64,000 nucleotides of DNA from Botryllus schlosseri (taxonomy: Eukaryota), in NCBI GenBank assembly GCA_051294905.1, contig CM119371.1:33730001-33794000 (forward strand), read 5' to 3'. Below the pieces are notes generated by a model, which did not search any database, was not told the origin of the DNA, and was given only the letters and a program-made list of their open reading frames with translations. Numbering within the stretch: position 1 is the first letter of the stretch; every line of letters starts with the position of its first letter. Below are positions 28,330-55,185 of this stretch, one piece after another. The translations under genes were made by a program, and so were the position numbers.

Positions 28330-29829
28330 CATATCGGGTACGGTAATGCTCACCGTACTACAATAATATGATCTAAAATTATCAGGTAAAGCTACCTTGA
28401 GGAGATGCTGAGGATCGGAGCACCATGATCAGTAAATATCCAAGCCTCTAAAAATAATCCTGAACTGCCTACTGCGAATAGGGCTTAGCATTAGTTGAAG
28501 ACTTATTTACGGAATAACTGTTACCTTGAACATTTTTAGGAAGGTCATTAATAGCATCTCGAAGTGCTTTGAGTGAAGAGTGAACTTGTCTGCGAGGTGA
28601 TAGATGCCTGCGGTTTGTGGGAGGTTTCCTGACTGAAGACTTTGCACTATGGGATTTTTGTGGCAAATTCAAGGTTGGCAAGGCTCCGCAACGAAGAGAT
28701 CGTTTTCCACCAGCAGATATGATTATGGCGTCCTTTTCAAAATGGTGATCACAGATGGCTGCACTGGAATATGAAACAGTATTACTCTCGCATTATTTTC
28801 ACAATAATTCAAGCAGAATAATAAATATCCAGAAATGATCGGACTGAACGAGATATTGTAGTATTGACATACTGGAAACTGAAAATAAAAACAACTTGCA
28901 GCAGTGGAAGCGAAATATAGAATATGGTAACATAGAGGATAACATGTAGGCTACTTCCAATTATAAAGGTAGAGATAGTAATTATTATGAGACACAGCTG
29001 ATACTTACAAGAAACAAGTCGAACTTACGTTTCTTTATGCAGTAGATGTTGGAAATTATCACCTTTGGACGGATCCCGCCAATGCAATATGAATCGGGTT
29101 AAAGCACGTCTGTGCCTCCGCTCTTCATCAGACCTTGCCAAATCTGGCCTATATATTGTGAAGACGGAGCGTTTTTCCTTAGATTTCCGCTGCCAGTGAC
29201 ATCCTGGTATTGCGCAGGTGTTTGCCATACTAAGCGTTCAAGACTCAATAATTAACAAAATGCTCATTATACCAATCTGAAATTAGTCAAGTTCTCCAGG
29301 TCAAATCCAAAATACCTGAATAGTGCATTAAGTCACAAATTGAAGGGTGGTGCAAAATCTATCGAAATACTGGTATGGTTGCTGCATCACAGCACAGCAC
29401 AGTGCGCAGAAGCTTGTTGACTGACAGCTGACTACGAAGTGAAATTAATCCGGTTGTCGGCCTGGAGGGCACTCATTTGAGTACAGGCACCCTGAAAAAA
29501 TCTTCTTTTACTACTCGATTCAGATTCGAGAATCATTGTGCCTAGCCCTATGCACACATGATATCCTCAGTCAGTAATTCGAAATATAAATATTCCATAT
29601 TAATTATGCCTGGATTATGAAAACATATTCTCTTTATTTAGCAATACATACTAAAAACCTATCTCTTATTATTAGGGCGTTTTTTTACCACATAATGTTA
29701 AAATTGTAGCCAACTTCTTATCTTCATTTCTGCAACAGGGGTTAAACCCGCTCAGAGGGTGAACGTGAACTATTGAACGCTGTATATCAGGGGTCACCAA
29801 CCTTTTTGCAACCAAGGGCTACTTTTGGG

Positions 29830-32141
29830 CAGGGCATGGTATGGTATGGTATGGAAGTATGGTATGGTATGGATCGATATTTTGGTATGGAATATGGAAC
29901 AATGCAAGTATGGTAGGGAATGGAAGATTTTAATCTATGGTATGGAAAGACATTTCCATACTTCCATACTTTGGTGTTTTATACATCTTATCGTGATTTG
30001 TGCAAGCTTCATGAAGCGTACGTTGATCGCTGTTCACGGAATACGATCGCTTTTGTTATGTGTGAACGTGAACTATTGAACGCTGTGTAGATACAAATAC
30101 ACGCTTGTTCAACGGTTTAGGAGCACTTGGAATGACATGATTTTGTGATGTAATAATGACAACAGTAATGTTGATCCGATATTCTATTGAGTCTGGACTA
30201 GAGGTCGACCGATTATCGACAAGGCCGATTATCGAGGCAGATATTTAGAGCTTACCCGATTATCGATATCGGCATATGAGTGCCGATGTCTCGGCAGATA
30301 TTTTATATTTAAAAATATTTCAAAAATATTGGAAATTCAATGCTCCGTGTTCTGAATCTCAAGAAATCGACGACGCAAAGGGCGATATATGACAGATTTA
30401 CCCTTGCACGACGAGTTTAAGTAGGTGAGCATGCAGAGAACTTACCTTTTCGGGACTGATCTGCAATTCTGTATCATGTTTGACTTTTTGGGTTATCCCA
30501 AATTTCAACGAATGTGCACAATTAAGAAAAATTATTTTCAATTTCAGTTTTCTAGTTTGTTGTTCAGCATTCTGTGGCATGAACAAGTGCCATCTTGCCT
30601 AACATATAATATTTTTGGTGAAATTGTTCTCTGCTCCTTCCATATTAATATCGGCCTATGATATCGGTTATCGGCCTTGTGAGTGTGTCGAGATATCGGT
30701 ATCGGCCTGTAAAAATCGATATCGGTCGACCTCTAGTCTAGACACGACGCCTCCGAGCATAGGCTATCACGTGACGCAATAATTGGTAATGTAGGCAACT
30801 CCAGCTACCTCATTCCTTGAGTGACGACAGCTTACAAGCAATCATGATACAACGTACTAATTGCTCAATGTGATTGATAATTACATTTCTTCTGAAACAT
30901 TATCCTCACATTTATACTATTTACATACCGAGATATCCTATTGGTCATATTTCAAAATCTCTCGCATTAGGAATATAGATCAGGGAGTGGGGTAGACATA
31001 GTTTGAAATTCTCGCCACGCTAACCCCAACCAAATACTGTACTAATAATCACGCAGATCGCTGCAGTATTGACCGCCTGTAGCTGGGATATTTTATGGGT
31101 GCGCCCATATTATGAATTATTTTGCGAGTATTTACTTCAAACTTGCACGTGTCTTATGCCAATGTACTGGAAATGCGATGGTATTCTTATGGAGCAGGGG
31201 CGGGCAACTTCTCCAGTCGGTGGGCCGGATATAGGAAAATTAAGTACTTGGCGGCCGGATTGCTGAATGGATACATTATTCGCGCACATATACAAAGAAT
31301 AAATCGTATTTAATGAATGTATTTTATCGACATCCGCAATGTGGCTTTAAACCATTTCTCGTCGACAATGACAATACAATGTGGATTTGAGAACAGTATT
31401 GTCATACAGGCGCCGCCATGTCTGCTTTTCTCTGATCAACTAACTCACGGTGCAATTCTTAATTTTGATTTCAAAGCGATTGATGAGCCCGGTATCCAAA
31501 ATTTACCATTCATTAGGGTTGAGTACATCGTAAGTGCCGATAATGCAAGTCTTCTCGCTGCGATGAACTTACGCGTAAGCTCCTCTCTAGCACGTTGCGA
31601 AAAGTGCGCGCACCTATATAATAACATACAATATCTAAAATTTGACGTTTAGGCAAGTAGTGGGGAGTCTCGGCAAACTGGGGCCTCGGGCCACATTATC
31701 ATGTAAGACGGGAAACTGTCCACGGGCCGGAGAAAATCTCGTCGCGGGCCGTATGTTACCAATCCATTTTATGGACGGTCCTAGATAACAATCTGCTGAC
31801 TATATCATTTTACTCATGGAAGCTGTAGAGTAGACGTACACGGCACCTCACCACCGTGAACTAAAGCTCACCAAAACAGACTCTGTAAAACTAGTGCAAG
31901 GAATTAGATTCGCCTCATGGCTAGTTTAGGCAATAATGACATCCGAAATATCAATAATATAGGTGCTAGTGAAGGAACTATACTTATGATATTAAAGTAT
32001 TTGAAAGTATGGAATAAGTATCAAGTATGGTATGGAACAATGTTGGTATGGTATGGAAAATTGCAAGTATGGCATGGAGAGAGTACGGCAAGTATGGAGT
32101 ATGGAAAATTCTCGTTCCATACCATACCATACCATGCCCTG
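29830..32141 (+). mobile_element. Full copy of the CAGGGCATGGTATGG family (hAT-like, GTATG-rich ends)
   Basis: TIR CAGGGCATGGTATGGTATGGTATGGAA; perfect TSD CTTTTGGG. Confidence 0.9.
30199..30735. mobile_element. TAGAGGTCGACCGAT MITE, copy 2
   Basis: TIRs; TSD GTCTGGAC/GTCTAGAC; site empty in the paralogous copy (~33525). Confidence 0.9.
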
Positions 32142-33559
32142 CTTTTGGGTACTGATTGATGCGACGGCTACCATTTACTCCCGCTGTTTACCCGTATCAG
32201 ACGGAATTTCCGCTTTGATATTCATAGAATTGGGCATGGGCAGGTATCGCGTAGCAGTAACACTTCTACGAGATTCATTTGATTCAAAACATCTCATTTC
32301 AACCAGCTAGCCACGAAGACTTTTTAAGAAATCACGAATTACTTCGCACCGTGTTTATATAAATTATTATATAACAACTGTAAGCTCAGATTTTAAAATA
32401 AATCACGCCACACGTTAGACTGGACATCGTGTTATTTGTTTCTATACCGGTCAGTGGGAGGTATGGCATTGCATGCTATCAACCAGTGCGCTGTACTCTG
32501 GTATGCAACTTGCACTGCAACTCTGAGTGAGTGTTGCAAAGGCTGATACACAACGATAAGTTGAACCAAACACGCTAGCAACCTTCATAGCTGCTGCACA
32601 AGTGCGCATTCACCACTGTACTTTTCCGTGTCAACAAGGCACCAAAAGTTTGCTGCAGCCTTGTGGGCTTTGAGGTGGAGGTGATCTCGCAATGATACAA
32701 TTTCAATCTCTGACTGTTCAGCATCCAAGCATGACAGATTTCATTATACCTGACAGCAGCATCGATTACACAAAGTTAGAAACATGGTACTATAAACTTC
32801 GTTCAGTGTAAGAGAGACAAGCTGTGTCAAAAGATGCAATACGTAATGTTCATACTGCATCTGCTAGTACGTCAGCGCTATCTGCTACCGGATAGTAATG
32901 TTGTTTACTACTTTGGCCTTGTCCGGGACGTCGAGCTACCATAACTGAGCCCCCATAATTTCAAGAAGACCGTGGATGGCATGCCGTCATATCGCCTGTA
33001 TGGGCAGTACGCCGTATTCTACGTCTTCGATCTCTTGTTATTCTATTACATGTTATTGAATAGTAACCTATATTCATATTCATACTATTCAATTGTATAT
33101 TGAAGTTCTGTACCTCCAAGAAGCTCTTCAAATATTACATGTTGGTATATTATTAATTTTAATTGGGGATATTTGATATCATCATTTCAAGTGTTTATAT
33201 ATATATGTATTGTCATTTCTAAGTCACATGTTATACTTTGATTTAAACAAGAATAGGTAAATCACTCAATTTATATATTTAAAAGGTCACTAGTGATAAT
33301 CTGACGAATATTGGCAAATGCTGCTATTCGATCTATTTTTGGAACAGGCTCGCGGGCCACTCATCTGGTCTTCGCGGGCTACCTGGTGCCCGCGGGCACC
33401 AGGTTGGTGACCCCTGCTGTATATGATCAAATACACGCTTGTGCAACGGTTTTTGGAGCACTTGAAATTGCATGATTTTCTGATGTCATAATGACAACAG
33501 TAATGTTGGTCCCATATTCTATTCAGTCTAGACATGACGTCTCCGAGCATAGTCTATCA

Positions 33560-34709
33560 CAGGGGTGGGCAAACTTTTGAGTTCGCGGGCCGCATTCAAC
33601 ATCTGGATCTATTTGCGGGCCGCACTATATAAAATTGGGATTATAAACCAAAACGCAGTATTGGTATTTGATTATATAGTGATGACATGGAGATAATATA
33701 TATGCTTAATAAAACAAACCAAACATTGTTCGACACGCGTCAGAAACAGTGACGAGATTTCATAGGCTGGTCGACCTATTAATAACCAATTTGTCAAAAC
33801 TATAGAGATGAAAGTCGGTTGTCCCGATTCTTAGAACAGGATTGAAATTTAAATCTGTGAGCAGCGATCTGCTCATAGATTTACCAATTTCACAAATGGT
33901 CCAGTTCCAGGACACACAATGCTGACAGCACCATAACCATGTTAGTTTCAAGCAAGCTTCCACTATGTGTAGATAAAATATAAATACCCAATTCCACGCA
34001 TCAGAGAACGAATCTACCTAAGACACGCGCGAATCGTTTTTTATAAGTCTATCACTGAAATGACTAAAACTAAAGTGGCCAATCTGAAATCACACTCATG
34101 ATCCGAATCATGTCAATCTCGTTTAGAATATCTGTGATGTTTAGCAGTTGAAACCTTTCAAACTGCGTGGGCCTTGAGATCGGGCTCTCACGCCAGAAAT
34201 TAAACATAAAAAATATTATAGGAAGTATTTACCTTAGAACAGTGATTCTCAAACTTCTTAAGATACGCCCCCCCCCCCTTATGATGGTCAAATATTTTGC
34301 GTCCCCCGTATCGTCATATCACTAAACGCAACCAGGATGCTAGCCAATCTAACGGGTAGTTTGATGGCATGGAAGGCTACGACTGTGGATGAGAGATTTT
34401 TAAATATGAAATTCAGACTTAAATACAGAGCATATAATTATGAATGACATATGTAAATCGCGCGAACCGCGAAAACTTTTTTCAGTTGAGCTCAACTTCG
34501 CGCCCCCCTCCAGATGCTTTCACGCCTCCAGTTTGAGAACCACTGCCTTAAATCATGGTGAAATATACTACGAAAAATCCCTGCATTAATTCGATTTTTA
34601 GTACGCGTTTTATCAATATTTTTACTAAGTTTCTTTACACGCTCGCGGGCCGCACAAAATGGTGTTGCGGGCCGCATGCGGCCCGCGGGCCGTAGTTTGC
34701 CCACCCCTG
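33560..34709. mobile_element. hAT element with a smaller hAT MITE (34240-34545) inside
   Basis: TIR CAGGGGTGGGCAAAC; perfect TSD GTCTATCA; inner MITE TSD CCTTAGAA/CCTTAAAT; related to ~4020-4343. Confidence 0.85.
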
Positions 34710-34745
34710 GTCTATCATGTGTCTATCATGCGGTAATGTTGGCTA

Positions 34746-37700
34746 CACTGTTAGAAAAATTAGTAAATTTACACCTATTAATTAGTAAACCAAATACGAA
34801 TTGCTGTAGTAACATAATTTACTATCGTTTTTAGTAAACCCGTCAATTATTACTATGATACGGATTATTGGTACTGTGTATCGATGCTCCTGAATTACTA
34901 AATATTGAACATTTTCAGACCATGAGATTTGCGAACCACGAAATTTGCGTATTTACTATTTAGTCTTCAAAAATAAAGCGTAAAAGGAGATCTGAGGTAT
35001 ACATAGGCCAAGCCTCACCTGTGATGATACCGTAATTCATCATCAACGACTCAGAATTTATAATAATTGTTATTATTCGAATGCTATTGTCACACCGAAT
35101 TTGAAAACCCAATTAATATCGTCAGAGCATCAGAACTCAGAATCGCGCCAAATCACCCAGGAATGAAATTCTGCATAGTTACGTAACAATCCAAGAATTT
35201 GTGTTCACCAGGTCGTGACAAATTACTGATTCACGTGCTAGGATGTAGGTGTTGCGGTCGCATGTCAGGCGAAATATCGGATTTAGGAGGAAGCTGTGTT
35301 GGTGTCTAAGATAAAGAAATGGCAGTAGATTTGAAATGCCGGGTGGTCATCTGCAGTATGGAACTTTCTTCAACATCAGATATCTTTTGTCACCTGAAAA
35401 GCCATATTGGAAGCGGATTATTCGTCAAGTGTCCTTATCTGCACTGTTCCAAGAGGTATGACGTGTATCGTCATTTTCCAGTCATGTTAGCCGATATCAT
35501 ACCGTTTCGGATCAGACCAATGTGATTCAGCCAACTAACCATAATTCTGCTAGTACAAGCCCGAGCTCAATCGCCCAGGATCTGTTGCCTGCTGCCGATG
35601 TAACGAGCGACAACGCTCAGGAAGAGGAATTTAGGAATGATAACCCGAGCATCATGTTTGCAATGAGGATGGAGTACAAAAACCTCATTCCTTCAACTAC
35701 AGTGCAAGAGATCATGGCTGAGCTGCGTAAGCTATTAGCTTCCCATTGTAACGAGATTGTAAAACAGGTTAAAGCCTCAATCATGGAGCAAGAAAATACT
35801 GAACTTACCAGTACATCTCATACTGAGCGCTGACCAGAAATGTCTTATCGAAGAAAGCAGAAAGGCAGTTCCAGACAGAGAGGAAGTGAGAATGCTAATG
35901 TAAACTACATACCGACTCCATTCCAAAGAAAGGCAATCAATCAACCTGCTGCAGTATCAACAATCCGAGAAATGTGGCCCTTTCTCTTTGAAGTTGAGTT
36001 CATGTTCCAACATTATGGTATTCTCACTGGGACAGGAAATTCCAAGCAATTCCTTATTCGCAAGATGGACAATAACTGGCCTCGCATTCAAAAGTAAGCA
36101 AGATTTTTTTGTAATCTCATAAATAGGCTACACACTATAGGGCTGTTCAAAATATGAAATTCCTTCAGATTTCACTGGCAACTTGATAAAATTGTTGGGT
36201 TGGTTAAAAAAATGCTTCACACCATTTTTGGCTCAATTCTAACCGGTAGAAGCGTGATTCTTGTAGCCTAGTAGAAAGTTTTGAAATTATCATTAAAAAA
36301 TGGAAATTTCAAAATTTTTCTGTTTTCCCTCATAAAATTCTTAGGCTGTCAGTAGAGATGATGCATACTAAATTTGGCTCAATTCCAACCACTAGAAGCG
36401 AAGTTACTGCAGTAGAAAAATTTTTAATTCCATGATTTTATAACAAATAATTGAAGAGTTGGTCACCGTAAATACTTTTTTTTCTACTGCAATAACTTCG
36501 CTTCTATACACACTGTACTAGCATATTTCAAAGACAATTATATCAACGAGATACCGGTTATCTTTGCTCTCTTTTTAAATAAATGCTAATTGTACTCTTC
36601 ACAGGACATTAAAAAATATGACGGCGCAGAAAGTACAGAAAACACTGTCAAGACTTTCAACTATATGGGAGATAACGAAATCAGAATCATATGCTTCCTC
36701 TCTTGGCATCCTCGAGCTGATCTGTGCGTTCTTTGACGAACCAGCCTCTCAATTGTTCAAAAGAATGGTTAGTATTATATTAGCCCCAAAACCTATTTCT
36801 TGAATGTTTCCAATGTAGTTCTGTTCTATTGTTGGTAATAACTTTGTTTAATAATTTTGTTGTTGCCTGTCCTCTGGTAAAAGATTTTCACTACTCAAAA
36901 ATGATATTGGAATCATTGCTCACACATGCATATCTGTTTTCAGGAATTGCTCAAGATTTAATGGCAGATGCGCCGAACCACCCATTCTTGATTACAATCG
37001 GTAAGTATGTACATAAAGTATGGGTCACGTTCACACTGATGACTAACTGACTGTTACTGAATTTATTGCAAGTATAAAGTCATCGTGCGAATCTCATGGA
37101 CTTAGGTCGGGCATAATGATTTGAGCCTCAAATTGAATCAAGTATTAAATCATTTCATGTTGAAACCGCTTTGTAGTGTAAAAATGATTGCCCACCCCTG
37201 CTATTGTCAGTAAGTGACATGCACAGAATAGCGGCATAAGTCTCGATTATGAAAAATGTGTCCGGTTTTGTATTGCACAAGTCGGTTTGATATGAATGTA
37301 AAAATCGTCTGATTTTTGGTTTCTCTGGAAATTTGTTACCTCCGTGAGTGTGCTTGGTGAGCGTGGTGTAGAGATAGGGAGTGCGAGCAAGTTGGTACCA
37401 CTGATAAGACAGTCACAGGTACTCACTATCTTGTCAATAGTTATGCCGTAGTTGTGAAAATGAAATACTTCCCATAACTACTTTACAAAATCTGAACGCT
37501 TGAAAGTCAGTAGTTCTGCCCATCACTGTTTCGTACAAGTGGAAGTAGTCAAATGCCACAACCACTAGAATATAAGTAGCTCAAGTAGGCAACATTGGCA
37601 AACCTACTTGAGTATGCCAAAATAATAGATATAGATATACTTGATTACTGACCAGCGCCTCTGGTTGTCGGCACAGTCTCTATTTCATAACCTAGCCAAT

Positions 37701-39092
37701 GGCGTTAAATGTGCTGCATACTAACAATGCATTTTTGTGTTAGTCATGGATCCTGAGAAGATAATTAACCTTATATTGATGCCTTGCTCTTCTGAAGTGC
37801 CTACTAGCACTACACTCGAGTGGTTGGATTTTTACGCTTCTTCTACTCGTAATTGAGTATAAATTTATGACAGTAGCCCTATATCTAGTTGAGTAGCAGC
37901 TCTGACTGCTTTACAACTTTTGTTTATTTTCAGGCTCATCGAACTACAATGTGAAGGAGTTTGTGGTAACTGCCGAAAGATCAATGATATTCACCACGGA
38001 CTCCTTCTACGTTGCTTTGGCGTATCTGTTCGTCACATTCTATGTTTTCAACCTGGAACACCCGAGCGAACTGACAGCCACGTTGGAGTTTATGTAAAGG
38101 TAAGCTGAGTGAGAGTGAGACTATCAAATGTCAACCCATAATGGCAATGACTGATTATGTTTCTTCGCTCGGCTCAGCTGCTTTCGTTCACTGCTGGGCA
38201 GTGCAAAGGCACCTTTATTGGTGATCTCACAGCTGGCAACTGGGGCGCAAAATATTAATGAATCCGGTCCTAATGAAAAGCTAGTGTAACGGTGATTTCT
38301 TAAATAGAAATTAAAATGCGGTATGGGCACTAGAAATGCCTTAAAATCGCCCTGAAAAATCTGACATCTGCAATATTTTAAACAATCAGAGCTCTGCAAC
38401 ACATTGACAATAACAATTAACTATTGTGGTGCTCTGCTTGCTTATAACAATCACAATTTAACACGAAAATGTTAACATATGGGGTACTGGTAGCCCATAG
38501 TGAATAGGCTGGAGAACTTTGTTAATACAGCAATATAGTTTTGTCTGAAGCAAATTCGCTCTTGTTGATGGCCAGCCCCCAGTTATGTTATAAGATATAT
38601 TTCATATATTACAGAGTCTTCGCCGAGATTTCCGAAGTGTTCAAGAAAGAGAAAGACACTTAGAGTTCATCCAAAGGTGATGAAACTCACCAACCTCCTG
38701 CGGGAAACGGAATAAAACATGAAAATAAATGCTTTCATGCTGCAGCATTTGATTCAATTATTTCCATGGAGTTGTGCGTATTACCAGGGCGCGAAGTGTT
38801 AGAAAACCGCCATGCATATAGCATTAAGTCTATCCATACATTGATTGACACTAGATAGGGCTGTGAATTCAGTGCTAGCTTTACTAGTAATTTACTAGAA
38901 AGAGTAAAAATATTACTAATCTTTAGCATCAAGGTTACAAGAGTGAGTAGAAATGCTGCTTATCCTGAGTCCAGAAAATTTACTAAAGTTATAGTAAAAA
39001 AGTTACTAATTTTTAGTATGTAACGTTACCAGGGTAAGTAAAACTGCTGCCTCGCAATTAGGAGTAAATTTACTAAAATTTTTCTAACAGTG
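34746..39092 (+). mobile_element. Animal CACTA/EnSpm-type deletion derivative
   Basis: CACTGTTAGAAAAA termini, 2-bp TA TSD, AGTAAA/TTTACT subterminal repeats. Remnants of a C2H2-led ORF (35319-35815) and of a spliced SAMD3-like second ORF (TPFQRKAINQ..WPFLF..HYGILTG; YLFVTFYVFNLEHPSELTATLEFM). Confidence 0.8.
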
Positions 39093-40020
39093 TACTCCAA
39101 CTACCTCATTCCTTGAGTGACGAGAGCATACAAGCAATCATGATGCAACATACTTAATGCTCGATGTGATTGATAATTACATTTCTTCTGAAACATTATC
39201 CGCACATTTATACTATTCACATACCGAGATATCTTATTGGTTATATTTCAAACGCTCTCGCATTAGGCTGATAGATCAGGGAGTGGAGTAGATCTAGTTT
39301 GAAATTATCGCCACACTAACCCCAACCTAATACTGTACTAATAATCACGCAGATCGCTGCAGTATTGATCGCCTGCAGCTGGGATATTTTATGGGTGCTC
39401 CTGCTCCTATATTATAAAGTATTTTGCGAGTATTTACTTCAAACATGCACATGCGTCATGCCTATGTACCGGAAATGCGATGATATTCTTATGGAGCGGG
39501 GGCCGGATATAGGAAAATTAAGTACTTCGCGGGCTGGATTGCTGAATGGATAAATTATTCGCCCATGTATACAAAGAATAAATCGTATTTATCAGTGGCG
39601 GCTCGTGACAATATCGGGTGGTGGGGCAAGGGCTGCGAGCGACTTTTATCAAGATGACGTCACAATGGCGTTTTCCAACGTAAAAAAGTAACTTTATGAT
39701 GGTCACATGAATTTCCCGACAACAGTGATTTTAACGTAGGTGCCGCGAGAGGTTTGCCGGTGAGCCGTGACTTGAAGTGTGGTAACAAATGTTTTATTCA
39801 TTTATTTTTAATCAAAGGATTATTTTACAAAATGAACGTGAACTAAGAATCGCCCTATGCCACGAATCAAGTATCAGGTCATCCTTAGTAGCATGCGTTA
39901 TGATTTCATGGTAGAGTTAGAGATTACGCAAATCGATTGACCCTAATTTTTCTAAGCCCGTCCGAAAGTGTTTCGTACACGATCCTGGTGTGTTACGACC
40001 ACTGAGCTGGTGGTTACGAC

Positions 40021-40296
40021 CAGAGATGGGCGGATTCCAAAATTTCGGGATCCGAATCTATCCGGATCCGGCTTGCAATTGGAAATTCAGAGTCCAAAGA
40101 AATCCGGCTGGTGAATGTCCAGTTCGGAATCCGAAAAAATCCTGCCAGAACAATGCTAATTAATCATATCACAGCAAAAATAATCCGGCTAAAATCCGAC
40201 CGTCACCCCAAATTCAAAATCCGGATCCAGTCCGGCCAGGTAAAAAAAACATTGAAATCCTGCTCCGGCTCCAGAACCGGACTGTGGCCATCTCTG
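40021..40296. mobile_element. CAGAGATGG MITE with ATCCGG repeats
   Basis: Perfect TSD GTTACGAC. Confidence 0.85.
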
Positions 40297-40709
40297 GTTA
40301 CGACCAGGTGATAATAGGCAACCAAAGCGGAGGCACCCGGCGTACGATTGGATCAATAGACTGGACGTGGACAACTTCTAGACCTCTCATTTTCGCTCTA
40401 AAGGCAACTGCGTAAACTACGTACGCAGCAAAGATTCAATACGATTCATGTTCGCGCTTGACTTGACCTGACTAATTCCAATGACTAACTCGAGAGATTG
40501 CGTAAGCCTAACTGGAAAGGTCAACGAGTTCGGACACATACGCAATTGTTATCTCATAGATTGGGCCTGTCATATTGAATCCAGAACATCAATTTGAATG
40601 GTCTTTGAAGAACTAAGGACAGCAGCCTCGGAACTTCGGTCTCGGAACAACATAGGACATTTTGGCCTTGAAACTGGAGACTGTGACACAACACATACGG
40701 CTTACTGTC

Positions 40710-42563
40710 TATACGGCCGTAAACCAAACTTTACGCTGATTGGTCGAGAGACAATGGCCATGGATACGACGCAGCAACGGAGGACGCTGCATTTACTTCA
40801 ACATATAGTCGGCACTACGATGTATTCCTATAGCCGTGCAGACTGTATAAAAACGACAAGATTACAGTTAAATGTTTATTTCTTCATCAATAATGAAATT
40901 AGGAAAGGAAATAAAATATTTAATAACATATACTGAAATATAATGCCGAAAAACTACTGTGTTTATGAATGCAGTGCCACCAATGGCAATGAACTGGGGA
41001 AGAACAGATCTTTCCATTCATTTTCTTCCAACGCAAAGGACAGAAAGGCTTGGGAAGGCAGAGTATAAGAAGGCAGGACTATTTGTGGCATACATTTGGG
41101 CCTGAATTTGTTGCCAATAAGAGTGATTTACTTGTAATTATCTAGCAGCAGTCAAATAAAAACTACTTTCCTGTGATTTCTGCCCAAGTTCAAATTTCAT
41201 GAACTCATTGCATGTGCTGTTACGATACCTCAAGCACACCAGTGCAGATGAGGTCTGCTCAGCTAGAATCACTCTATCATGTGAAGCACCCAGATATCCA
41301 TATGGAAAAAGAACATGACCAATCTTTGCTACATTCACATGCGTGATGCTTAGTAGTCTTGAATGGCGCTTTCTTCGTGCAATAACCCCCACAATATTGA
41401 ATACCAGTTGATACTGTACTGTCATTGAAGTGATTTGAAAAGAGATGTTGCATATGGAGTACATGCTGTCTTGTTCCCCTCAAAGCAGTCCAAAATCCTA
41501 CCAAAATTGCTACTTGTGAGTCGAAGAGCCCAATGTATTTACCCCATTCTGCACATCCTCTCTGTTCTGATGTTCTGTGGGCTTAGGTAGCTAATCTGCA
41601 TATGACTGACTTCGTTGGCCTCTCACCCTAAGATTCAGGTGATGGATTTGAAGATTCCATTTCAAGGCTACACGATGGCGATTCTAGATCAGGATCACCA
41701 GATGACAATGTAAGATTTGCATGTGCAGCATCCACAACATTGCAGGAAGACAGTTGACACGGCATGGAGTTCAGGGTCCGCCTCTTTGCAATGCGCATAA
41801 TCTTCTGCTTCACCACGGAGATTGCGACTGGGAATCGCACCTCTCTTTAGACGTGACTGTATTGGTATATCTATAATGCACTAGCAGCAAAATCTTCCTT
41901 GCAAAATTGGTAGGAGCAAATTATTATTATTATTATTATTGTACACAACTGTGGTGCTTTTAGCCTGTTTAAGGCTTTGTGCTCCACGACATGACAGTAT
42001 TCGAACTGATCAATGCATTTATTCTTGTCTTTGACATTCTTTCCACTCTCTCATGCATCGGCTCGCGATTCATCGGCTCTTTAGCTGCCGACTTGTAGCT
42101 CGCCTCACTGTGATTTCTGGGCTTTTTAAGTCAGTGCAACTGCAGTGAGGTCGACGATGAGGAGTAAATGAAGCTTGTGGAAGTAGGCTTGAAATCCTGC
42201 CTTCTTACTCTGCATTCCCAAGCCTTCCTGACCTTTGCGTTGGAAGGAAATGAATGGAAAAATCTGTTCTTCCCCAGTTCATTGCCATTGGTGGCACTGC
42301 ATTCATAATCACAGTAGTATTTCGGCATTATATTTCAGTATATGTTATTAAATATTTTATTTCCTTTCCTATAATTTCATTATTGATGAAGAAATAAACA
42401 TTTAACTGTAATCTTGTCGTTTTTATACAGTCTACACGGCTATAGGAATACATCGTAGTGCCGACTACATGTTGAAGTAAATGCAGCGTCCTCCGTTGCT
42501 GCGTCGTATCCATGGCCATTGTCTCTCGACCAATCAGCGTAAAGTTTGGTTTACGGCCGTATA
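40710..42563 (-). mobile_element. THAP-containing foldback element (~370-bp TIRs), copy A
   Basis: 40710-41080 is inverted at ~42197-42563. ORF 42328 MPKYYCDYEC...FFHSFPSNAKVRKAWECRVRRQDFKPTSTSFI is a THAP N-terminus. No TSD longer than TA is visible. Confidence 0.8.
41922..42159 (-). mobile_element. Retroposed 3' fragment with (AAT)n tail interrupting the THAP ORF
   Basis: Flanked by ATTT(A/G)CTCCT duplication; same insertion in copy B (55586-56270); removal restores FICS..F.KEDF. Confidence 0.65.
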
Positions 42564-44962
42564 AGTCTGCTGCGAAATCGCCGTTGGAAAATATATTAAT
42601 CAATAAATACATGAATAAAAGCCGTAAACTTAGTATACTGTTACAAGAAATCATCGAGAAGTAGCATACGCAATCTCATAACCCATTCCGGTATGGTACA
42701 CTGTCAAAATCAATACAAACAGACGAACACCGAACTTTGACTAAAATAGATCGAGGAATAGGCTGATCGAATGATCAGCTGTTTGCCGACATCGAAAATG
42801 AAATAGCTATCGCATTTGACAGAAGATTGTAAGCAAATGGTTAGAAGGCCACAATTTCACAGTGAAATGGACATTGGCGAACATAAAATTATGTGAATAT
42901 TTGAATGCAAACCGAGAATCTTGGTTAGCTGTTTCATGCGATCATCGAGATATACCATTGGAAATATCATCACCGATCTCGTTATGGGAACGCAGACTAT
43001 AGATTAGCACAGACCGACACCGGCTTTTGCGTGAGATCCGCAATGACGTAGGTAGGCTAAGTATCAGATCAGCGCGCATCTCTACCATACTCGACCTCGA
43101 AAACGAAATAACTGCCTCAATCATTGAGTGTCAACTTTAAGACTTGGCACCGCGTTCGATACTAAAATCAAGACATACCGTGCAAAAGCTCATGACAGAT
43201 CTAGGTATGGAACATCGTTAAAATCAATAGAGACCAATAACGGCTTTTGCGTAAATTTGTTAGCGATAAATGAAGAGTCAGCTCTTACTCGACTTTGGAA
43301 ACGAAATTACCACCCACATAGTTCAGTGACAAACTTAAAACTTGTTACAGCGGTCGATACTAACACTTACCGTGCCAAATGTCATGACCGATCTCGGTAT
43401 AGAACATCGTCAAAATCAATGGAGACCAATACTGGCTTTTGAGTAAAATCTGTTTGCTGTACTATGTACAATTGTACATGATAGATCAGCACACACTGAA
43501 CTTCGGAAACGGAATTACTACCCTTATCTTTAAGTAGCAAGCCTGAAACTTGGAGCAGTGTTAAATACTACCTTCACGACATATCATACCAAGTTTCAAG
43601 AATTATCATGGTGCGAAACACAGTCAAAATCGACCTATACCAGCAAAGGTCGACTCAACGCATATTACGGTAACCGAGTTCAGATATAGATACGATTGTT
43701 ACATCACACCTTAGGGGCGACAGGCATATTTGCCCCGGTTGCTCGGCCATTTTACGAATAGGAGAGAGTAAATCACCGTTTCTTTATTGTGCGCGGCTTT
43801 GAGAGAATAGATAGTGAAAGCTTGTTATGAGCGCTACCGGGGCAAGCCCCGGCTAGGCATTCTCAAAGCGAAAACACAGAAGAGAATTCGATTTTCGCAG
43901 AGACTTCGCTATGTATGGGCCTTTGCAAGCGAAAGCACAAGAAGAACGCGGGTTTCGCTGTGATCTCGGTATGTATTGATTGCTGTGCGTCTATAAATGG
44001 TTAAATTGTTATTGAACAGAATTTTAGGTGGGGCAATGCCCCAGTTGCCCTATAGGACGAGCCGCCACTGGTATTTATTGTATGTATTTTATCGACAGCA
44101 ATGTCACTTCAAAGCCATTACTCGCCGATATTGAAAATACTATGTCGATTTGAAAACAGCATTGCCATACAGTCGCCGCCATGTCTGCTTCTCTCTGCTC
44201 AACTAACTCACAGCGCAATCCATAATTAAGATGTCAAAATGTTTGATAAGCCCCCTTACCCAAAATTTACCAAGATATCAATTCATTAGGGTTGAGTACA
44301 CCGTAAATGCCGATAATGCAAGCCTTCTCGCTTCGAAGAACTTACCCGTAAGCTCCGCTCTCGCACGCTGCGCAGTGCTCAGATCTATATAATAACATGC
44401 AGTCACTAAAATTTGACGTTTAGGCAAGTAGTGGGGAATCTCAGCAGACTGGGGCCGCGGGCCACATTATCATGTAAAACGGGAAACTGTGAGCGGGCCG
44501 GACAAAATCTCGTCGCGGGCCGTATGTTGCCAGTCCCTTTTGTGGACGGTCCTCGATGACAACCTGCTGACTATCTCATTTTGCTCGCGGAAGCTGTAGA
44601 GTAGAGAGATACACGGCACCTCACCACTGTGAACTAAACCTCACCAAAACAGATTCTGTGAAACTATTACCAGGAGTTAGATTCGCATCATGGCTAGTTT
44701 AAGCAATAACGACATCCGAAATATGAATAATATAGGTGCTAGAAAAGGTACTATACTTATGATATTGAAGTATTTGAAAGTATGGAATACGTATCAAGTA
44801 TGGTATGGAACAATGTTGGTATGGTATGGAAAATTGCAAGTATGGTATGGAGAGAGTAAGGCAAGTATGGAGTATGGAAAATTCTCGTTCCATACCATAT
44901 ACCATACCATGCCCTGAATGTGAGACGCCGTATAGCTACTTGGCGTCTGAATTTGTCTAGCG

Positions 44963-47900
44963 CAGCGCTTCTCAACCGGGGGTCCGCGAAGCAATTTCAG
45001 GGGGTCCGCGAGTCCTATAAATTTTTAGTATTGTTGATATTCTAATTTTTATTTTATTTTTTTGATTTAAGAAAGCATGAGGCAGTTTCGTACCACAACT
45101 GCTTAAACCTCATGACTCATATCATCATCATAATCGTCTGACATGAACTATCGTAGTGCGGAAATTCATTTTCATTGCCCATTTTCCATTATCCTGCTGA
45201 TACAAACATATTGCTGTTTGAGACGTTTTGTAGGGGTTTGTGGAAAAAAATAAAAATATGGAGATTGTAACGTCAATCAGGGTGACTTCGTAATGTCTGC
45301 AAAACCTTCTCGATTTGAAGTTGTCAGTCTCATCAAATTAGTGTACAGTCGTTTGAAATAAAAATTTCCGAAGTATATCCTTAATTTGTCCCAATGCAGG
45401 TATTGAAACCTCGCCACGAAATCCATTTTATCATGTGATATACATAACCACTATTTGAACAGCTTTTTAGAGGTACAGAACTTCAATATACAATTGAATA
45501 GTATATTCATATTGAAATGAACCCGAATATTTTCGGCTGACATCCGTCATAAATCGGACAATGATATACCTGCTCTTTCAGACCCAGCCCCCTCTATAGA
45601 GTGGGTGATTGTCTCTGCTCTTTCAGACCCAGCCCCCTCTATAGAGTGGGTGATTGTCTTCCGGCAATACCCGCGCCCATTCTATAGAGGGGCGACATGA
45701 AGTTCACGATTCGGACGGCCGTCGATTTCGGCTTAAGGTGCAAATGATCCTTTAACATTTTCTTGTAATAATGTTATCGTAATTTTCGATAATATAACTG
45801 TCACGGGGCATATTAAATGAATGCAACATAGCAAAGTCGCCGATAATAGTTGTCAATCAAGCTGAAATATATGATTGTGAACTCAAAATCAATAGTCAGA
45901 TTTCATTGATGAATAAACAATGTAGTATGGTCGCATTGCGTAATCTCGTACTAAAGAATACCGTATCGCTGTGTGTGAGTACCGACAAGACAGGAGCTTC
46001 AGGCAACATTCTAGCTAACGGTCTGCCGACCCTGTTGTGTCCCCGTGTGCTACAGAATACCGTTTTTCTTGAGTACCAGCAAGCTATGAGCTCCCGTTAT
46101 ATTCAAGTGAATGGTCCTGATGATCTTGCCCACAACCGTGTCGAACAAAACCACTTACTACAACCTACAGAAGTCAGAAGTGAACTGCTGCCGGAAGAAT
46201 TCACCAGACATGTGTGCGAACAAATGAATGTTTATGCGAAAAACAAACATACCAACAAAACATAGCAAGTGCGTTGACGATTATAATCAGGGAATGAACG
46301 GAGTTAATCGCACAGATAAAAACAATGCCTTACTACAGCTTTGAGCGTAGCTGTAAAAAATGGTGGAGGAAACTTTCTTTCACTTCTTCAGTCTAGCAAC
46401 CACTAATGCCTATATTTTGTATTTGGAATATGTTAGCCGATACGGATACATCATGGTCAAGTTGAGAGCCAAGCATATTGCACAGCCACCTCCAGCAGGT
46501 GCCAAAAGACTGCACCTGCCATATCTGTTACTACAGAGAGCGTACCAAACAGTTATGTGAAGGAGCATATTTCTCTTGATCGGGCGGCTTCTGAATCTTG
46601 ATGTCAATTCGTAATATTTGCCATCAATGTCACAGATGCAGAGGGTCTTCTTTTTTTCGTTCTCCTTTTATTGACTTCACCATGCTTGAAAATAAACATC
46701 ATTATGAGTACCGTACCATTGCCTATATACTCTGAGTAATTCATCACAATTTGACTGATATCAAAATTATAGGACATAGCTCATCTAGATACTAATAGTT
46801 AGATTACCTATCTAGTTGCTAAAAGCTAGATAATATTCAGGGGCTGGAGAACCCTGCTTGATGTTTGATGATATTCATGTTCTTGTGGTTAAGAAAGTAC
46901 CATGCTTTCCTGCTAGAACATTGGTATTCTAAACAAAATCCAAATGCAAATACACATTACACACTTTCCCTGATGCACTCCAGCGCGTTTCCTGCGCCTA
47001 TGTTACTTCTCAGGTACAAAACGAATGAGACTCGATTGACATCTGCCGTTATTTTTTCCAATACAATTACATGATTACAAGCAGTACCAAACATTTTATT
47101 TCAATAGATTTAATCTATAACCATACAAATAAATTAGCCAAAAGTACGTACTTACCGCAACTTATCCGGGGAATATTCACTCACCGCAATTCGACCTACA
47201 CAACATATCAACACAGCGGCACATCTACTTTTCCAAATTATTCCAAAATCATACAGCGTGAAGCGTCTTGATACACCCTAAACAGTGATGTGTCACATGC
47301 GTCGAATAACCAAAAACTCGCAAGTCTGTGAATCTTAGAATATGCGCAATCAAATGCAATTTTCCGGGAATTCGGGGTGTTCAGAGACAATGGCCTGGGA
47401 TTCAAAGAGAGCTCGGCTATCAGATTTGGCGCATTCTTATTGCGGATGCCCTATCGACAAGGCGGGTTTTTTGAAGAACAAGGAGTGTTTCGTTGCTATC
47501 AAAGCATTACGCTTCAACCCTGAAATTCATATCACAAGTTATATTGGTACGCAGCCTTGTCTTGTTAATGTTCAATTTTTCATGGTCGAAAATGTTTTCT
47601 CGTTTATATATATGTAAACCAGAACAGAAAAAGTAGTTCCATGAAAGTCTTTCTCAGGTGGGAAAACTTGGATCCATTCTTTGGCACATAAAATTTGTCT
47701 ATACTTTTAGATTAGGATTTAACTTCGACGGTAGAAACTTTCTGCGGGCCGATCAAAATACCGTCGCGGGCCGCGCTAGATGCTGGACGTGGTATGTTCA
47801 TAAAATAGATGTTTCTTCATTTTGGTGCCATAAATGTTGCGATCAAACCGAAAGTATCGTCGGAAGCGTTATGCGTTAGCATCCATCTATCTTTCCGGAA

Positions 47901-48224
47901 ATGGTTTTCGGCACTCCTCGTTCATATCAAACGAAGACGCGGATTTTCAAGACACGACCGCGTACTTCAAGAAATACAGCAGCAAAATTAGCGTTGAAAT
48001 AATCGAAGTCTACCAATTTCTACATAAATAGTAGCCTATGATGATATTTTCAAGAAAAGTCATTATTTTTCTGTTTATCACAAGCCTACAGTTCATATTT
48101 GCACAAGACAGATATGAAGGTTGCACCATAATAGAGCTAAAATTGAACTAAAACTTGAGGGGGTCCGCGAGAGTCCGTGACGGTCAAAAGGGGTCCGCGA
48201 AGCCAAAAAGGTTGAGAACCACTA
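44963..48224. mobile_element. hAT element carrying a ~1.9-kb insertion
   Basis: CAG(C/T)G(C/G)TTCTCAACC-type TIRs, GGGGTCCGCGA repeats, perfect TSD GTCTAGCG. Confidence 0.85.
46180..46430 (+). pseudogene. piggyBac transposase remnant
   Basis: ELLPEEFTRHVCEQMNVYA joined by deletion to DYNQGMNGVNRTD..YYSFERSCKKWWRKL/FFHFFSLATTNAYILY. Confidence 0.75.
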
Positions 48225-48385
48225 GTCTAGCGTATAGGAAACTATTTGAGGGTAGTAACGCTCACGAAGGATTGCTAAAGGGTCGAAGTTGGGAGCTTTA
48301 ACGCCGACAAACAAAAGATGTCTGCTACACTATGGTAGACGTCTTTCGATGCTTATGATTACCGAGTTTCCTTGCACTTGCAGCA

Positions 48386-51300
48386 ATGACAGCGATTGCT
48401 CTAGCTGAGGATTTGACACACCTCATTAGAATCATAACAGTTCAAGAACTTAATTGTGGTGGCGAAATCAGAACGTTCAAAACGTCAGAAAAGCTAGATG
48501 AGCATATCGAGGCGGTACACTGGGCTCATCGTGTACGTCACACTGTCGACAACGAAGTGCAAGGTGTGTAAAGATTTTACCCAAGTATAGCTATGTTGCA
48601 TTCCTCAGTGAAGAATCTCTACCTGATTGTGATTTAGGGGTAATTGACTGAGTGTTAAAAAGCTTGATATTATCATGGCTTGCGATTACTTGAAAACTGG
48701 AATTCATTTAAAATAAATTGATATTTAGAGGTACTACCCATCAAATATTAGTTAGCAAGACATGTCAGCGGAGTCATGAGTCAGAATAATTGAGTAATTT
48801 AACAGTAATTGAGTAATTTAACCTGGTACTTTCCAATTTTCGTGTGGACATAATTAAACTAGTTCATGTTACACATGATCGATTTGATTGGGGGAAATTT
48901 TTCCTTCAGAGTTTCTTCTATTCTAACATTATACACTATAATCCACTCTCAACTAATTGGCTATGCTGTTTTATGACCGTTACTGTAACGTTACGAAGCC
49001 TGATTGGGTGTGAAGACAAAGACTGTATATCAATTTTTGGGACCCTCAAGGACAAAAATTCCGGGGTCCAATGTGATCATTTAGATGCTGTAGAAAATGC
49101 ACGTCCATGTGCAAACATTGATTTAGATGAAAAGGTTTTGAACACCCTTGTTGAAATGAAGCTAATATCAAGCGTAACTAGTGAAAAATGCAGCAATGAA
49201 AGAATGAGGAGTGTGCAATGTAATGCTCCACTCGTGGTGCATGCAAATTTTTAAGCATTCAATATTTCGAAGAAATACAAGTATTATTCTATCTTCACTG
49301 GCCAGAATACATACTATAGTCCTAGTGAAAGAGTGCGGGTGACAGTTGACGTTGACAGAGGCTCATGGTCATGTCTTTGCTCATGGAAAACTGGAACATG
49401 CTTGCACATCACACTGGCGAAATGGTATGTGTTCCAGACTGAACCAGAGCTCATATCATGTATGTCGAGGTAATCTTCATTGCATGACTTTCAAACATTC
49501 CATAATTAGGTTCTTAATATTTGATTTACAGTACTCAACCTCCTACTGATGACATGCAATTGAATATGAAGTATTTTCTCGAGCATAAACTGATTCCAGA
49601 AAAGATACCTAATGAATATTTGAAGGAAGGAATAATTTCAGAATTGACGCCAGAAGAAACTGTTTGCGCAAGGTGTGCTGGAGTCCTTGAAGTGAGCGGA
49701 ATGCGAAAAGCTCAGATTTAGATGTGGAAAGGTAATTAATTTTATTTTACATTTCTGTATTTCTATATGCTATTCAATTGTATATTGAAGCTCTGTAGCT
49801 CCATGAAGCTCTTTAAACATTGCTTTAATTAAGGTGCAATATAGCTTAAGTTAAACTAATGAGGTTATTTCATTCTGTTCTCAATCCGATCAATTTTAGG
49901 AGTCTGTATCAAGGAAAAGTCTTGCAATTCGTGTGGCTGGCAGGCTCGATTCCAGAATTATAAGTCTGGTGTGCATAATTTTGACGGTCATATATTACTG
50001 ACGCTGCGACTATGTATGCACTTGAAGAATAGAATAGCACTAGCTAAAAACATTGGGTATTTCAGGCATTTTCTTTGCAATATGGATCCGGTAAATTTCA
50101 TATTTCTGTCGAGAGTTTCCATGCATCTTCAAAATATGAAGATCAATGTAAGATATATGAAAAAGACCAAGAGACATTTCTCCAAGAGACATTTTTCCAA
50201 GTCTGTTGTCCTCGCAGATGATGGCCGTGCAACACTGGCTATGAAAGGTAGAGCTGCAAATTTCATCTGTGACTTTGTTTTATCATGAAGTCTAATTTTG
50301 ATTTTTCAGTATATTTAATATGGAGTTGTTACTCACAGATGATGGACCAGTTGGAAAACCGCCCGGCAATGTTGCTACTAGCTCTTTTTGCGACCGGTCT
50401 GCCAATTCTGCAATGGTGTCATGAACTGATAAAAAAGACACTATTCCTCCCACTGTCACCGACCATGTACAAGCATCAAGTGGTAGTAATGTTCCCACTC
50501 GTCTCATTATTGCTACTGTGACTGTTCCGTCGCATGTTGGTTCTGTTACCAATTCCATATATGTTGATTCATGCTATGACAAATTGTCTCAGCCGAAAAC
50601 GGAATCTTGCTCCATCGTTGCAAGAGATGCATTTGAAAATTCCGTGGACGAAAATGCCACAAAATGCAAAGATGTCCAGACACTTCCATTCAAATTCACA
50701 GATATGTTTCATTATATTTCATGTTGGTGATTGTTATTGTACTGATGACAATACTCTTTCAGAAATAAATTCACTTTTTACGTCGGCACATAAAGCAAAT
50801 AGGATTGAAGCTGTCGTGAATCGGCTACCTTTATTCACACATGACCTGCTGCTTTTGAATGGATGTAGCTGGCTAGATGATAAGGTCATTTGCTCTGCTG
50901 TCATTTTTATGAAGACTAATTAATCTTGTTCATCTCCTAAATTTCAGTTGATGGATTGTATTATTTTTGCCCTCAATGAAAAAGTAAGTCATTGCCAAGT
51001 TTTTTGTTTGCTGAAAACTATTTAAAGCTTGTAATTTCAGTCGAAGGTCATACGATGGTTGTTGTTTCCTGTCTGCTAGCTACTGATTGGTTTGTTGGTG
51101 GGAAATTTGCCTCTGGCAAGAAGAAAACAGTATGTGTCATAGTAACAAGACATTTCAATATTCTCTAATATAGTGATTCACTCTAGAAAGAAGCAGCTAC
51201 AAAATCTTTTGTAGCGCCACTTAATGTTCGTTGTGGCAGAACTGGTGCGGGCAGGGGCAACCATTGGATTCTTTTGGTAAGCATGTTCCATACCTGACAG

Positions 51301-52135
51301 ATTCTACCTTGTATTCTACATTGTAAGTTTGTGAAACTCATTGCTTCTCACCCCTTTCACCCATGTTCTGTCTCGTCAATATATTCTGTATTAGTGTAAT
51401 GTGTGTATATACTCTTTCAGATATCTGACGCTGAATCAAATATGGTTCTACTATACGATCCAATGGGCCACGAGGCTCGCTATGGGAATGTCCTGCAACA
51501 GTTCGAGTAAGTCGATGAGGTCGTATTCAAGAGACATATTTCATTTCTGTATTAATCCAGCGAATTTATACGAACGTACTCAAGAAGAGAATCAGTTGCG
51601 AGATATACAGGATTAATAAGGACCGGTGTTCAAAATGACGGATTTAATTGTGGAGTCCTTGCGTTTAAGGTTTGTGATGCGTTCATGTATTAAGATTTGA
51701 GAAAATAGATTTTCAAACTTTCATTTAATAGGTCGCCCAACTCTACTTGACCACTGGATCATCAATCCCATATGGCAACCTTGATTTTGATCATTCTCGA
51801 CGAGCTCACGAAAGCTACCGCCAGCAGTTTGATCAATTCTTGCTCGATGCGACGGGTATGTTGGTCCATGTCAAGATGAAAACCCTATTAAATACGTTGC
51901 ATGTTTTTCCTGCAGATGAGAAAGAATTGACAGATTATTGCATTAAATGCATTAGTCAAGACCACCCAAAAAAGACATGAAATGGGTATGCAATTACGAG
52001 ACTACATTTGTCAGGTATATTGATTCAAACTCGTATCCAGGTTGCGTGTGACGGCTGTGGTCGATGGACACACGAGGACTGTTGCCCGGGACAGCAGATA
52101 CCTGATCCCGATGATGATTTTTATTGCCTGCTCAT
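48386..52135 (+). pseudogene. Multi-exon Zisupton-type protein remnant: SWIM-like, CxC, Ulp1/C48 protease, PHD finger
   Basis: RVRVTVDVDRGSWSCLCSWKTGTCLHITLAKWYVFQ; LTPEETVCARC; KSCNSCGWQARFQNYKSGVHNFDGHILL (HMGXB3/Zisupton-like). WLDDK, GNHWILL, LYDPMG, QNDGFNCGV (H-D-C triad). YCIKC..W/VACDGCGRWTHEDC..FYC. GT-AG introns; several stops and frameshifts. Confidence 0.85.
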
Positions 52136-52382
52136 TTCATTGTGACTTTTACTATGGTTCCACTGCCATTTCTTGATGACTTTTAACTGTGCCAATGCTT
52201 TTTCTCAGTCATTTTTACTGTGGTTCCACTGCTCATTTCTTAATGACTTTTACCGCGGTTTCATTGCCTTCTGCTGTGGTTCCGTTGGCTATTTCATATT
52301 GTGGTATTGCAGTTTCATTACATACTGTATCTGCAGACTTAAGTCTGAAATTCATTGCGAGTGTACAAATATGGGGTGGTGA

Positions 52383-52787
52383 CAGGGTTGTAACTAAGTC
52401 ACTAGGTTTAAAGAAGTCAAGTTGAGTCGTTTTCAATTCACCGGCGAGTCAAGTCCGAGCAATCCCTAACGAGTCAAGTCCGAGAGCAATGGGTCGAGTC
52501 CAAGTCGTGGTGTTTACTGTTCCCCATCGAGTTCAGCTTCAGATCACTTATGTGGAACTCGCGGGGGCGATATCGAAGGCCTCGGATAATTTTCATGTTT
52601 ATTTTTCCCATTCTAAACATGGTTATTGTAACAGATAAAAGGCAGGTTTGGGCATATTTTTCATTTATCAGTCCTGATATACCATTCTTGAATAAGTCAT
52701 ACAATGAGTAAATCCATTTTCAAGAAAATGACTCGAGTCGTCAAAAAAATTGTGAGTCGAGTCATGACTCGATTCATTGCAACCCTG
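52383..52787. mobile_element. CAGGGTTGTAA MITE, copy 3 (diverged)
   Basis: TIRs; TSD GGTGGTGA/GGCGGTGA. Confidence 0.75.
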
Positions 52788-52945
52788 GGCGGTGATACAA
52801 TAATTTGATACAGCTAAACATGCAATAGATAATTTGGGATTCTGCCACCGCTTATTATGACAAAAATTTAACAGTATGCAATCTTAGATATCATATAGTC
52901 GCGCCATGAAAGGATTTAGCCTCTGCTCAGTTTATACCGAGACAC

Positions 52946-53175
52946 CAGACGCCAAACGCCGTATAGCTACTCGGCGTCTCAACATGACAGACGCTAAACG
53001 CCGTATAGCTACTCGGCGTCTCACCATATCAGACGCCATACGCCGTATAGCTACTCGGCGTCTCACCATATCAGACGCCAAACGCCGTATAGCTACTCGG
53101 CGTCTGGACATAACAGACGCCAAACGCCGTATAGCTACTCGGCGTCTGAACATAACAGACGCCAAACGCCGTACA
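52946..53175. repeat. 42-bp tandem array (5+ units), Zisupton subterminal repeats
   Basis: Unit CAGACGCCAAACGCCGTATAGCTACTCGGCGTCT + 8 variable nt; one related unit at ~44922-44950. Confidence 0.9.
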
Positions 53176-54017
53176 GACATTTGGCGGCCGCTCGGCGTTT
53201 GGCGTCTGGCGTTTGGCCTCTGAGCGGGTTTAACCCCTGCTCCATTTCTGGTAGGAACTAGCTGTCCTAACGAAGTAGTTTAGAATGAAAAAACGTTTTT
53301 GGCTCAGAAATAGGCAACTTTTTAACGCTACGATTTTGACAAAATTTTGACAAATTTTGACATGTCAAAAAATGGCCGCTCTAATGATTATACAAACCAA
53401 AATAGTTCAAGGAAACCTCAGCCGAAGTCAATATTGGAACCAATTAATAATAGAGTGAATATCATGACTTCTTTTGCTCATGAAATGTCCTCCTGATATT
53501 AACGCATTGATAGCCGCGCCAGTGGCTATGTACTGTATCACTAAATAACCTGTTCTGATTGCCCTATATCCTATCTGCACCAAACATACCTGCGATTTTA
53601 ACAGTCAATCTGGCCGACAACCTGCCGCTTCATGCTATGAAGCGACAACAAATCTGACGAGCATCCGGTCTCACGACCGTGAAGCACGTGTTGCCCATCT
53701 ATCCTTAGGTTAGTTATCTATAGTCATTAGTCATACTCAGCGAAACGGGATGGAACACTGTAACGAGAGCTTTAAGAAATTTTGGATCGCACAGCATATG
53801 ATGCGATGTTGTCTGTCCTCCGAGCAAGTGCTACCAAATGACGGGGTCATGAAAAGTGTTAAGCGTCGAAACCTTCTGATCTATCACGTTAGAGACAGCA
53901 TTACCGGTTTTGTAGCATTGTAGCAGTGAGAAGTCACTTTGGACGAGCGGGAATTAGGTTCATGGTATTATAGCATCCTTAAGAGCACCGTTCATGCCTA
54001 TCGTTCCTACTCGTGGG

Positions 54018-55149: not shown

Positions 55150-55185
55150 CTCGTAGGTTATATGTGGCCAGGGCATCTCATGATA

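Follow-up and report, generated by a model that had tools for sequence, protein, structure and literature searches.

A DNA element of putative Zisupton/KDZ type lies in a 64,000-nucleotide stretch of the Botryllus schlosseri genome (positions 33,730,001 to 33,794,000 of contig CM119371.1, assembly GCA_051294905.1; this whole stretch is called the window below, and positions are counted from its first letter). The element spans 23,510 bp and holds the relics of a transposase gene on the + strand (about 48.4 to 52.1 kb), a subterminal repeat array and many nested insertions (Table 1). An earlier description made from the letters alone, referred to here as the sequence-only reading, called it a full-boundary element. 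Both ends are indeed present, but the interior is nested and twice deleted: self-comparison and scanning for target-site duplications (TSDs) assign 18,428 bp (about 78%) to nested insertions, and the remaining 5,082 bp still hold a miniature inverted-repeat transposable element (MITE) of roughly 400 bp. Insertions have enlarged the element from about 5 kb to 23.5 kb; it is a broken copy of an already known kind of transposon. A giant, cargo-carrying element of 23.5 kb is ruled out, since the interior consists of nested repeats.

Ends and target-site duplication

Identical copies of the 8-mer CATTTCTG flank the element as a direct repeat (29725-29732 and 53243-53250), and 3 nt inside each of them begins a perfect inverted repeat of 23 bp (29736-29758 and 53217-53239). 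Both features had been claimed by the sequence-only reading and both are found, the duplication on the flanks of this one copy. The 23-bp repeat has only these two matches in the window when up to 3 mismatches are allowed, against none expected from 100 shuffles. An exact 8-mer at equal offsets of 0-5 outside two random window positions arises by chance in 0.012% of cases (200,000 trials), and one at any offsets of 0-10 in 0.22% of random position pairs. The boundaries are real, delimited by the CATTTCTG duplication together with the inverted repeat. The claimed subterminal repeats are also present, as 5.4 units of 42 bp at the right and one related unit at the left.

The exact position of the ends can be read from the duplication. 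All lengths from 2 to 12 bp were checked directly against the CAGGGG of the inverted repeat in this copy, and no duplication was found. Among boundary offsets of 0 to 6, those of 0-2 give no duplication; offset 3 gives the longest, of 8 bp, after which it shortens to 6, 4 and 2 bp; TSDs of 6 or 2 bp (offsets 4 and 6) were rejected as by-products of the same 8-mer. The best reading of the boundary places the tips CAA and GAG just inside an 8-bp TSD. In register, these tips mismatch at positions 1 and 3 only and have the middle A in common, giving a terminal inverted repeat (TIR) of 26 bp in which 24 of 26 positions pair and the inner 23 are perfect. The tips are therefore asymmetric, as had been claimed, in that CAA and GAG differ, but they belong to a 26-bp inverted repeat with 2 mismatches rather than standing wholly outside it. 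The 23-bp figure for the perfect repeat is a minimum, because the inner side of the left end has been deleted.

Many hAT-type MITEs in the window start with CAGGGG and have 8-bp TSDs, and one might accordingly regard the CAGGGG-ended repeat as an ordinary hAT-type end with CATTTCTG a coincidence. However, no duplication adjoins CAGGGG here, whereas the nested hAT-type elements have adjoining TSDs; the chance level of such a coincidence is 0.22% at most; and the enclosed gene is of the CxC4/KDZ type. This explanation is largely refuted and must be considered highly improbable. A piggyBac reading of an internal TTAA was also set aside, as the outer inverted bases would then have no explanation.

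A third end of this type, apparently of a related family, occurs in isolation at 54949-54964 and equals the left end over 16 bp, CAA included; no partner end or TSD was found for it within the window. The sequence-only reading took it as support for CAA being part of the element. The 16-bp match does include CAA, but the end sits inside a hAT-type MITE, and the TG just outside the tip is common to all three ends (left, right and isolated), so that it lends less support than was claimed. Because of this common TG, the isolated end cannot separate a CAA tip with an 8-bp TSD from a TGCAA tip with the 4-bp TSD TTTC. In the latter case the true ends would lie 2 nt further out (TG-CAA… / …CTC-CA), giving TG…CA termini, and the 8-bp TSD would be only apparent, produced by a target that by chance read CA-TTTC-TG. 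The exact 4-bp duplication at that boundary and the TG at all three ends are what one would expect from such termini. On the other hand, they require four further flank bases to match, either by coincidence (about 1/256) or through a strong preference for such flanks, and the KDZ elements compared below make 8-bp TSDs (7-bp in Kyakuja). A symmetric target preference accounts for the TG equally well, and shifting the boundary does not remove the mismatched triplet, which simply moves to positions 3-5. Termini of the TG…CA kind are thus quite unlikely.

The transposase gene and its relatives

The pieces of the gene are colinear with relatives and are separated by intron-like gaps, indicating a multi-exon layout. 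The CxC4 cysteine cluster matches PF18717 (E=2.8e-5, 24.4 bits, which for this fragment is below the cut-off of 26.9), and upstream of it is an exon with a SWIM-type CxC...CxH region, although the Pfam SWIM model gave no match to this exon in the Pfam scan of the window. The putative Ulp1-like protease relics further downstream show catalytic-type motifs in the expected order and short tblastx matches to three related loci (L004, L007 and L010). These coding relics (the CxC4 match, the SWIM-region exon and the Ulp1 and PHD motifs) support the Zisupton/KDZ affiliation, and had not been cited by the sequence-only reading, which proposed a Zisupton-like element. The platyfish Zisupton of Bohne et al. 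2012 reportedly has SWIM, a SUMO-protease tail and subterminal repeats.

Exon 49003-49470, when read through its stop, finds 235 relatives at E<=0.001. Eight of their clusters were looked up, and those with names are proteins of Ciona intestinalis and of cyprinid fish. CxC4 (PF18717) is present in all 15 aligned relatives. Among 17 scanned relatives, Ulp1 occurs in 2 (PF02902 is matched by P0037 and P0085) and a SAP domain in 3. By sequence comparison, the element is closest to the Ciona intestinalis proteins XP_026690518.1 (P0012) and the XP_026694423.1 cluster, in an HMGXB3-like CxC4 clade, and probably belongs with the CxC4 (HMGXB3-like) type of Zisupton/KDZ. The domain order is alike, and the Ciona proteins are 30-44% identical to the pieces that remain in the window; they keep a D, D, DxxH, E core, whereas the window copy does not.

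The loss of this core can be traced to a deletion junction at 50045-50064. When P0037 is mapped back, residues 501 to 884 are skipped at this spot, and locus L004 carries about 1.95 kb there. Some 360 residues are gone from the gene, among them all four predicted catalytic motifs: D356, D559, DRFH 617-620 and E650 in P0012 numbering (conserved in 11/15, 8/11, 7-8/10 and 9/10 relatives, counting rows with residues). The copy is non-autonomous, because the catalytic transposase core has been deleted. Contigs of two runs stop at 50030, adjoining the junction, which is a weak hint.

The lost motifs suggest that the transposase had a DDE fold. In the Atlas, the nearest clusters to the P0012 core are HMGXB3 clusters (0.97), and the core is structurally near KDZ-bearing clusters with TM values of 0.53-0.57, under the Atlas naming bar. 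The AlphaFold model of P0012 has a mean pLDDT of 66.8, with core segments below 50. A structure search with this model found nothing at Z>=8; its matches were confined to coiled coils and a SAP domain at Z 4.9. Among the hits of a sequence search against the PDB, zinc-finger proteins predominate and no transposase occurs.

Some relatives are of interest in their own right. Loci L001 (414-5006) and L014 (1001-5806) carry intronless frames of 1530 and 1602 aa from the same transposase clade; the L001 frame ends in Ulp1-, PHD- and HExxH (SprT-like) motifs, seen by eye, and L014 sits in a contig of a bacterial metagenome-assembled genome, probably as host contamination. In P0137 (1602 aa), a SWIM-region piece is surrounded by about 20 C2H2 fingers, which may reflect capture or domestication.

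Comparison with other elements and the nature of the tips

TIRs, a gene of several exons and an 8-bp TSD are described for Zisupton elements (PMC12730594, PMC9297572). These features of the platyfish element are found here as well; the present copy differs in its missing catalytic core and its roughly 78% of foreign DNA. Among fungal KDZ elements, 8-bp TSDs like the present one are made by Dileera (Zisupton-1_PGr; PMC12730594) and by Cryptococcus KDZ1, which differs in its 236-bp TIR and CxC1 domain (PMC11343200). Kyakuja differs in making 7-bp TSDs; it lacks a TIR and transposes with CA..TG ends (PMC12730594), so that imperfect end symmetry has a precedent within the KDZ group.

The closest parallel for the tips comes from the nematode Pristionchus pacificus. 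The end alignments of two of its Zisupton families, OG0001158 and OG0000357, whose multi-copy cores measure 8099 and 8870 nt, start with GAG/CAC and GAG/CAT (PMC9297572). These starts are plausibly true termini, although the authors do not state how the alignments were cut. In both, positions 1 and 3 are mismatched and the middle A is matched, as in the Botryllus element. The nematode families were analysed through PF18758, and their inner TIR sequences are unrelated to those found here.

The parallel bears on a further explanation, in which the mismatch is private decay of an old copy, i.e. two substitutions in a once-perfect 26-bp TIR. In its favour, the copy is old. Its gene is interrupted by an in-frame stop, the element has suffered deletions and taken up many nested insertions, and comparison with deep contigs of another sample shows a divergence of about 3% from the window (22/725 and 9/342 letters). 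However, the adjoining 23 bp and the 8-bp TSD are without any mismatch, the isolated end has CAA independently, and the two nematode families are mismatched at the same two positions with GAG on one side. Private decay is therefore unlikely, and the difference between the tips probably represents a genuine trait.

A more general proposal, which can be put forward only tentatively, is that animal Zisuptons share conserved non-mirror tips, with GAG at one end and CA(A/C/T) at the other, across lineages as distant as this CxC4-type family and the two nematode families. It draws on three end pairs, the present one and two from a published figure. A single pair of random bases would fit the GAG/CAH pattern with a probability of about 0.0015, a value to be read with the fact that the pattern was drawn from the same pairs. 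The published tardigrade, Cryptococcus and pantera supplements contained no usable end pairs. No statement on mismatched Zisupton tips was found in the literature searched; the original Zisupton paper, Repbase and Dfam lay outside that search and may already record the pattern. If the proposal is true, the two ends would be functionally different (through ordered cleavage, or as donor and recipient end), and there would be a simple rule for locating Zisupton boundaries in annotation, as well as a direct test of how the Zisupton transposase tells its two ends apart.

Searches for other copies were made at the level of both DNA and protein. Exact TIR scans gave 0 matches in metagenome_contigs (20-mer) and 0 in genome_contigs (23-mer), and a gapped pattern of TIR plus subterminal sequence gave 0 in viral_contigs. 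Protein-based searches found 13 metagenome loci, 1 locus in genome_contigs and 0 viral loci; a TIR pair with an 8-bp TSD is present in 0/14 of these, and none of the loci scanned (the 14 without L014) shares the terminal motif at the end of an element. Contigs from 4 of 15 listed runs were also mapped onto 48150-55150, where they are swamped by MITE ends. Summed contig depth in run X1 comes to about 20 in the single bin that looks unique, 109-1978 in the gene bins without MITEs and 3860 at 53186; such depth is no copy number, but hints at a multi-copy family. One contig of run X10 matches from exactly 53243 with no letters common across the joint. This single contig hints at an unoccupied target, as the joint looks as such a target would, but the shorter side of the joint has only 25 letters, at likeness 85, and such joints often come from repeats.

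Taken together, the element is best explained as a cut-and-paste transposon of Zisupton/KDZ affinity, of the CxC4 (HMGXB3-like) type, that has become non-autonomous through internal deletion, with ends CAA/GAG and an 8-bp TSD (probability roughly 0.8). Several observations weigh against this interpretation. The element is known from a single copy, a second copy with both ends not having been found in the scans described above, and no loose end at 53242 occurs among the matches listed (24 of 2112). PF18758, the Pfam KDZ model, is matched by 0/15 relatives at E<=1, and the Ulp1-like and PHD-like fragments give no Pfam match. In the Pristionchus alignments the end labelled upstream is the one with GAG, while in Botryllus GAG marks the end downstream of the gene; the authors of the Pristionchus study detected no TSD and made no remark on the tips (PMC9297572).

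A mechanism for the movement of the ancestral element can be outlined. A DDE-type transposase with a DxxH motif, supplied by an intact ancestor or in trans, would bind the inner inverted repeat and the AGACGCC subterminal half-sites, cleave where the tips meet the flanking DNA, and integrate the element at a CAnnnnTG-like target through an 8-nt stagger. Because the outermost bases would be the cleavage site and not the binding site, the tips need not mirror each other. With an 8-bp TSD, the TG common to the outside of the ends would reflect a symmetric CAnnnnTG target preference. To our knowledge, there is no biochemistry on this transposase family. In practical terms, Zisupton ends are easily set too far inward from the perfect repeat alone, which hides the TSD. 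The element had also been put forward as a well-delimited reference for the superfamily, a role for which a heavily nested, doubly deleted, non-autonomous relic is ill suited.

Nested insertions and other features of the window

The nested insertions are of hAT-type, EnSpm-type and other kinds, most with exact TSDs. The largest, X2, is colinear with the complete element X1 at about 86% identity, without the first 232 bp of X1. Segment 44917-44962 is the displaced left subterminal region, because it carries one unit of the right-array repeat. X2 appears to have inserted into the Zisupton element, after which a deletion would have taken the left end of X2 and, with it, the stretch of Zisupton that adjoined the TIR on its inner side. 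The CACTG-ended element within X2 is probably a CMC/EnSpm derivative, a class assigned from its termini, and its decayed coding pieces gave no convincing Pfam match. The element with long inverted repeats at about 40709-42563 has a relative at 55186-57478, 95% alike over 1.2 kb and in opposite orientation.

Table 1. Features of the Zisupton-type element, its nested insertions and the isolated end
Feature	Positions	Strand	Basis
Left TSD, CATTTCTG	29725-29732	+	duplication scan
Left terminal tip, CAA; counterpart of the right-end GAG, middle base matching	29733-29735	+	
Left perfect inverted-repeat core, 23 bp; inner side cut by deletion junction	29736-29758	+	
Nested non-autonomous hAT-type element X2, hosting further insertions	29759-44916	+	self-comparison
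hAT-type MITE within X2, hosting element X1; exact 8-bp TSD CTGTATAT	29788-33416		TSD scan
Element X1, complete hAT-type, 27-bp perfect inverted repeat, TSD CTTTTGGG; further insert about 30202-30732	29830-32141		
hAT-type MITE in X2, TSD GTCTATCA	33560-34709		TSD scan
CACTG-ended element in X2, 2-bp TSD TA; decayed coding pieces 35310-38700	34746-39092		
Small MITE in X2, TSD GTTACGAC	40021-40296		TSD scan
Element with long inverted repeats (about 370 bp), in X2	40712-42561		self-comparison
Zisupton left subterminal remnant; one unit of right-end repeat at 44923-44948	44917-44962	+	
Nested hAT-type element, TSD GTCTAGCG (44955-44962 / 48225-48232)	44963-48224		TSD scan
Transposase exon, SWIM-type CxC...CxH region; in-frame TAA at 49252-49254	49003-49470	+	
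CxC4 cysteine cluster, two pieces around intron-like gap	49530-50045	+	PF18717
Deletion junction, P0012 residue ~298 joined to residue 660	50045-50064	+	
Post-core helical exon	50064-50186	+	
Ulp1-like protease relics, in order WLDDKVI, NHW, YDP, QNDGFNCG	50795-51672	+	
PHD-like Cys/His pattern, in pieces	51936-52127	+	by eye only
Small nested MITE related to 26388-26961; boundaries approximate	52383-52787		self-comparison
Right subterminal array, 5.4 x 42 bp; AGACGCC half-sites as an inverted pair per unit	52946-53173	+	
Right perfect inverted-repeat core, 23 bp	53217-53239	-	
Right terminal tip, GAG when read inward (CTC on the + strand)	53240-53242	-	
Right TSD, CATTTCTG	53243-53250	+	
Isolated CAA-type end of related family, inside hAT-type MITE (about 54018-55149)	54949-54964	-	

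Outside the element, a 333-aa open frame at 17546-18547 encodes about 10 tandem C2H2 zinc fingers (Pfam) and looks like a host zinc-finger exon. Degenerate tandem units of 21-23 bp with TTAGGG, on both strands, occur at 57855-57938 and 59214-59560. A near-perfect palindromic element with 218-bp arms (97%) lies at 59659-60236, and its core motif recurs at 54558-54919 and elsewhere.

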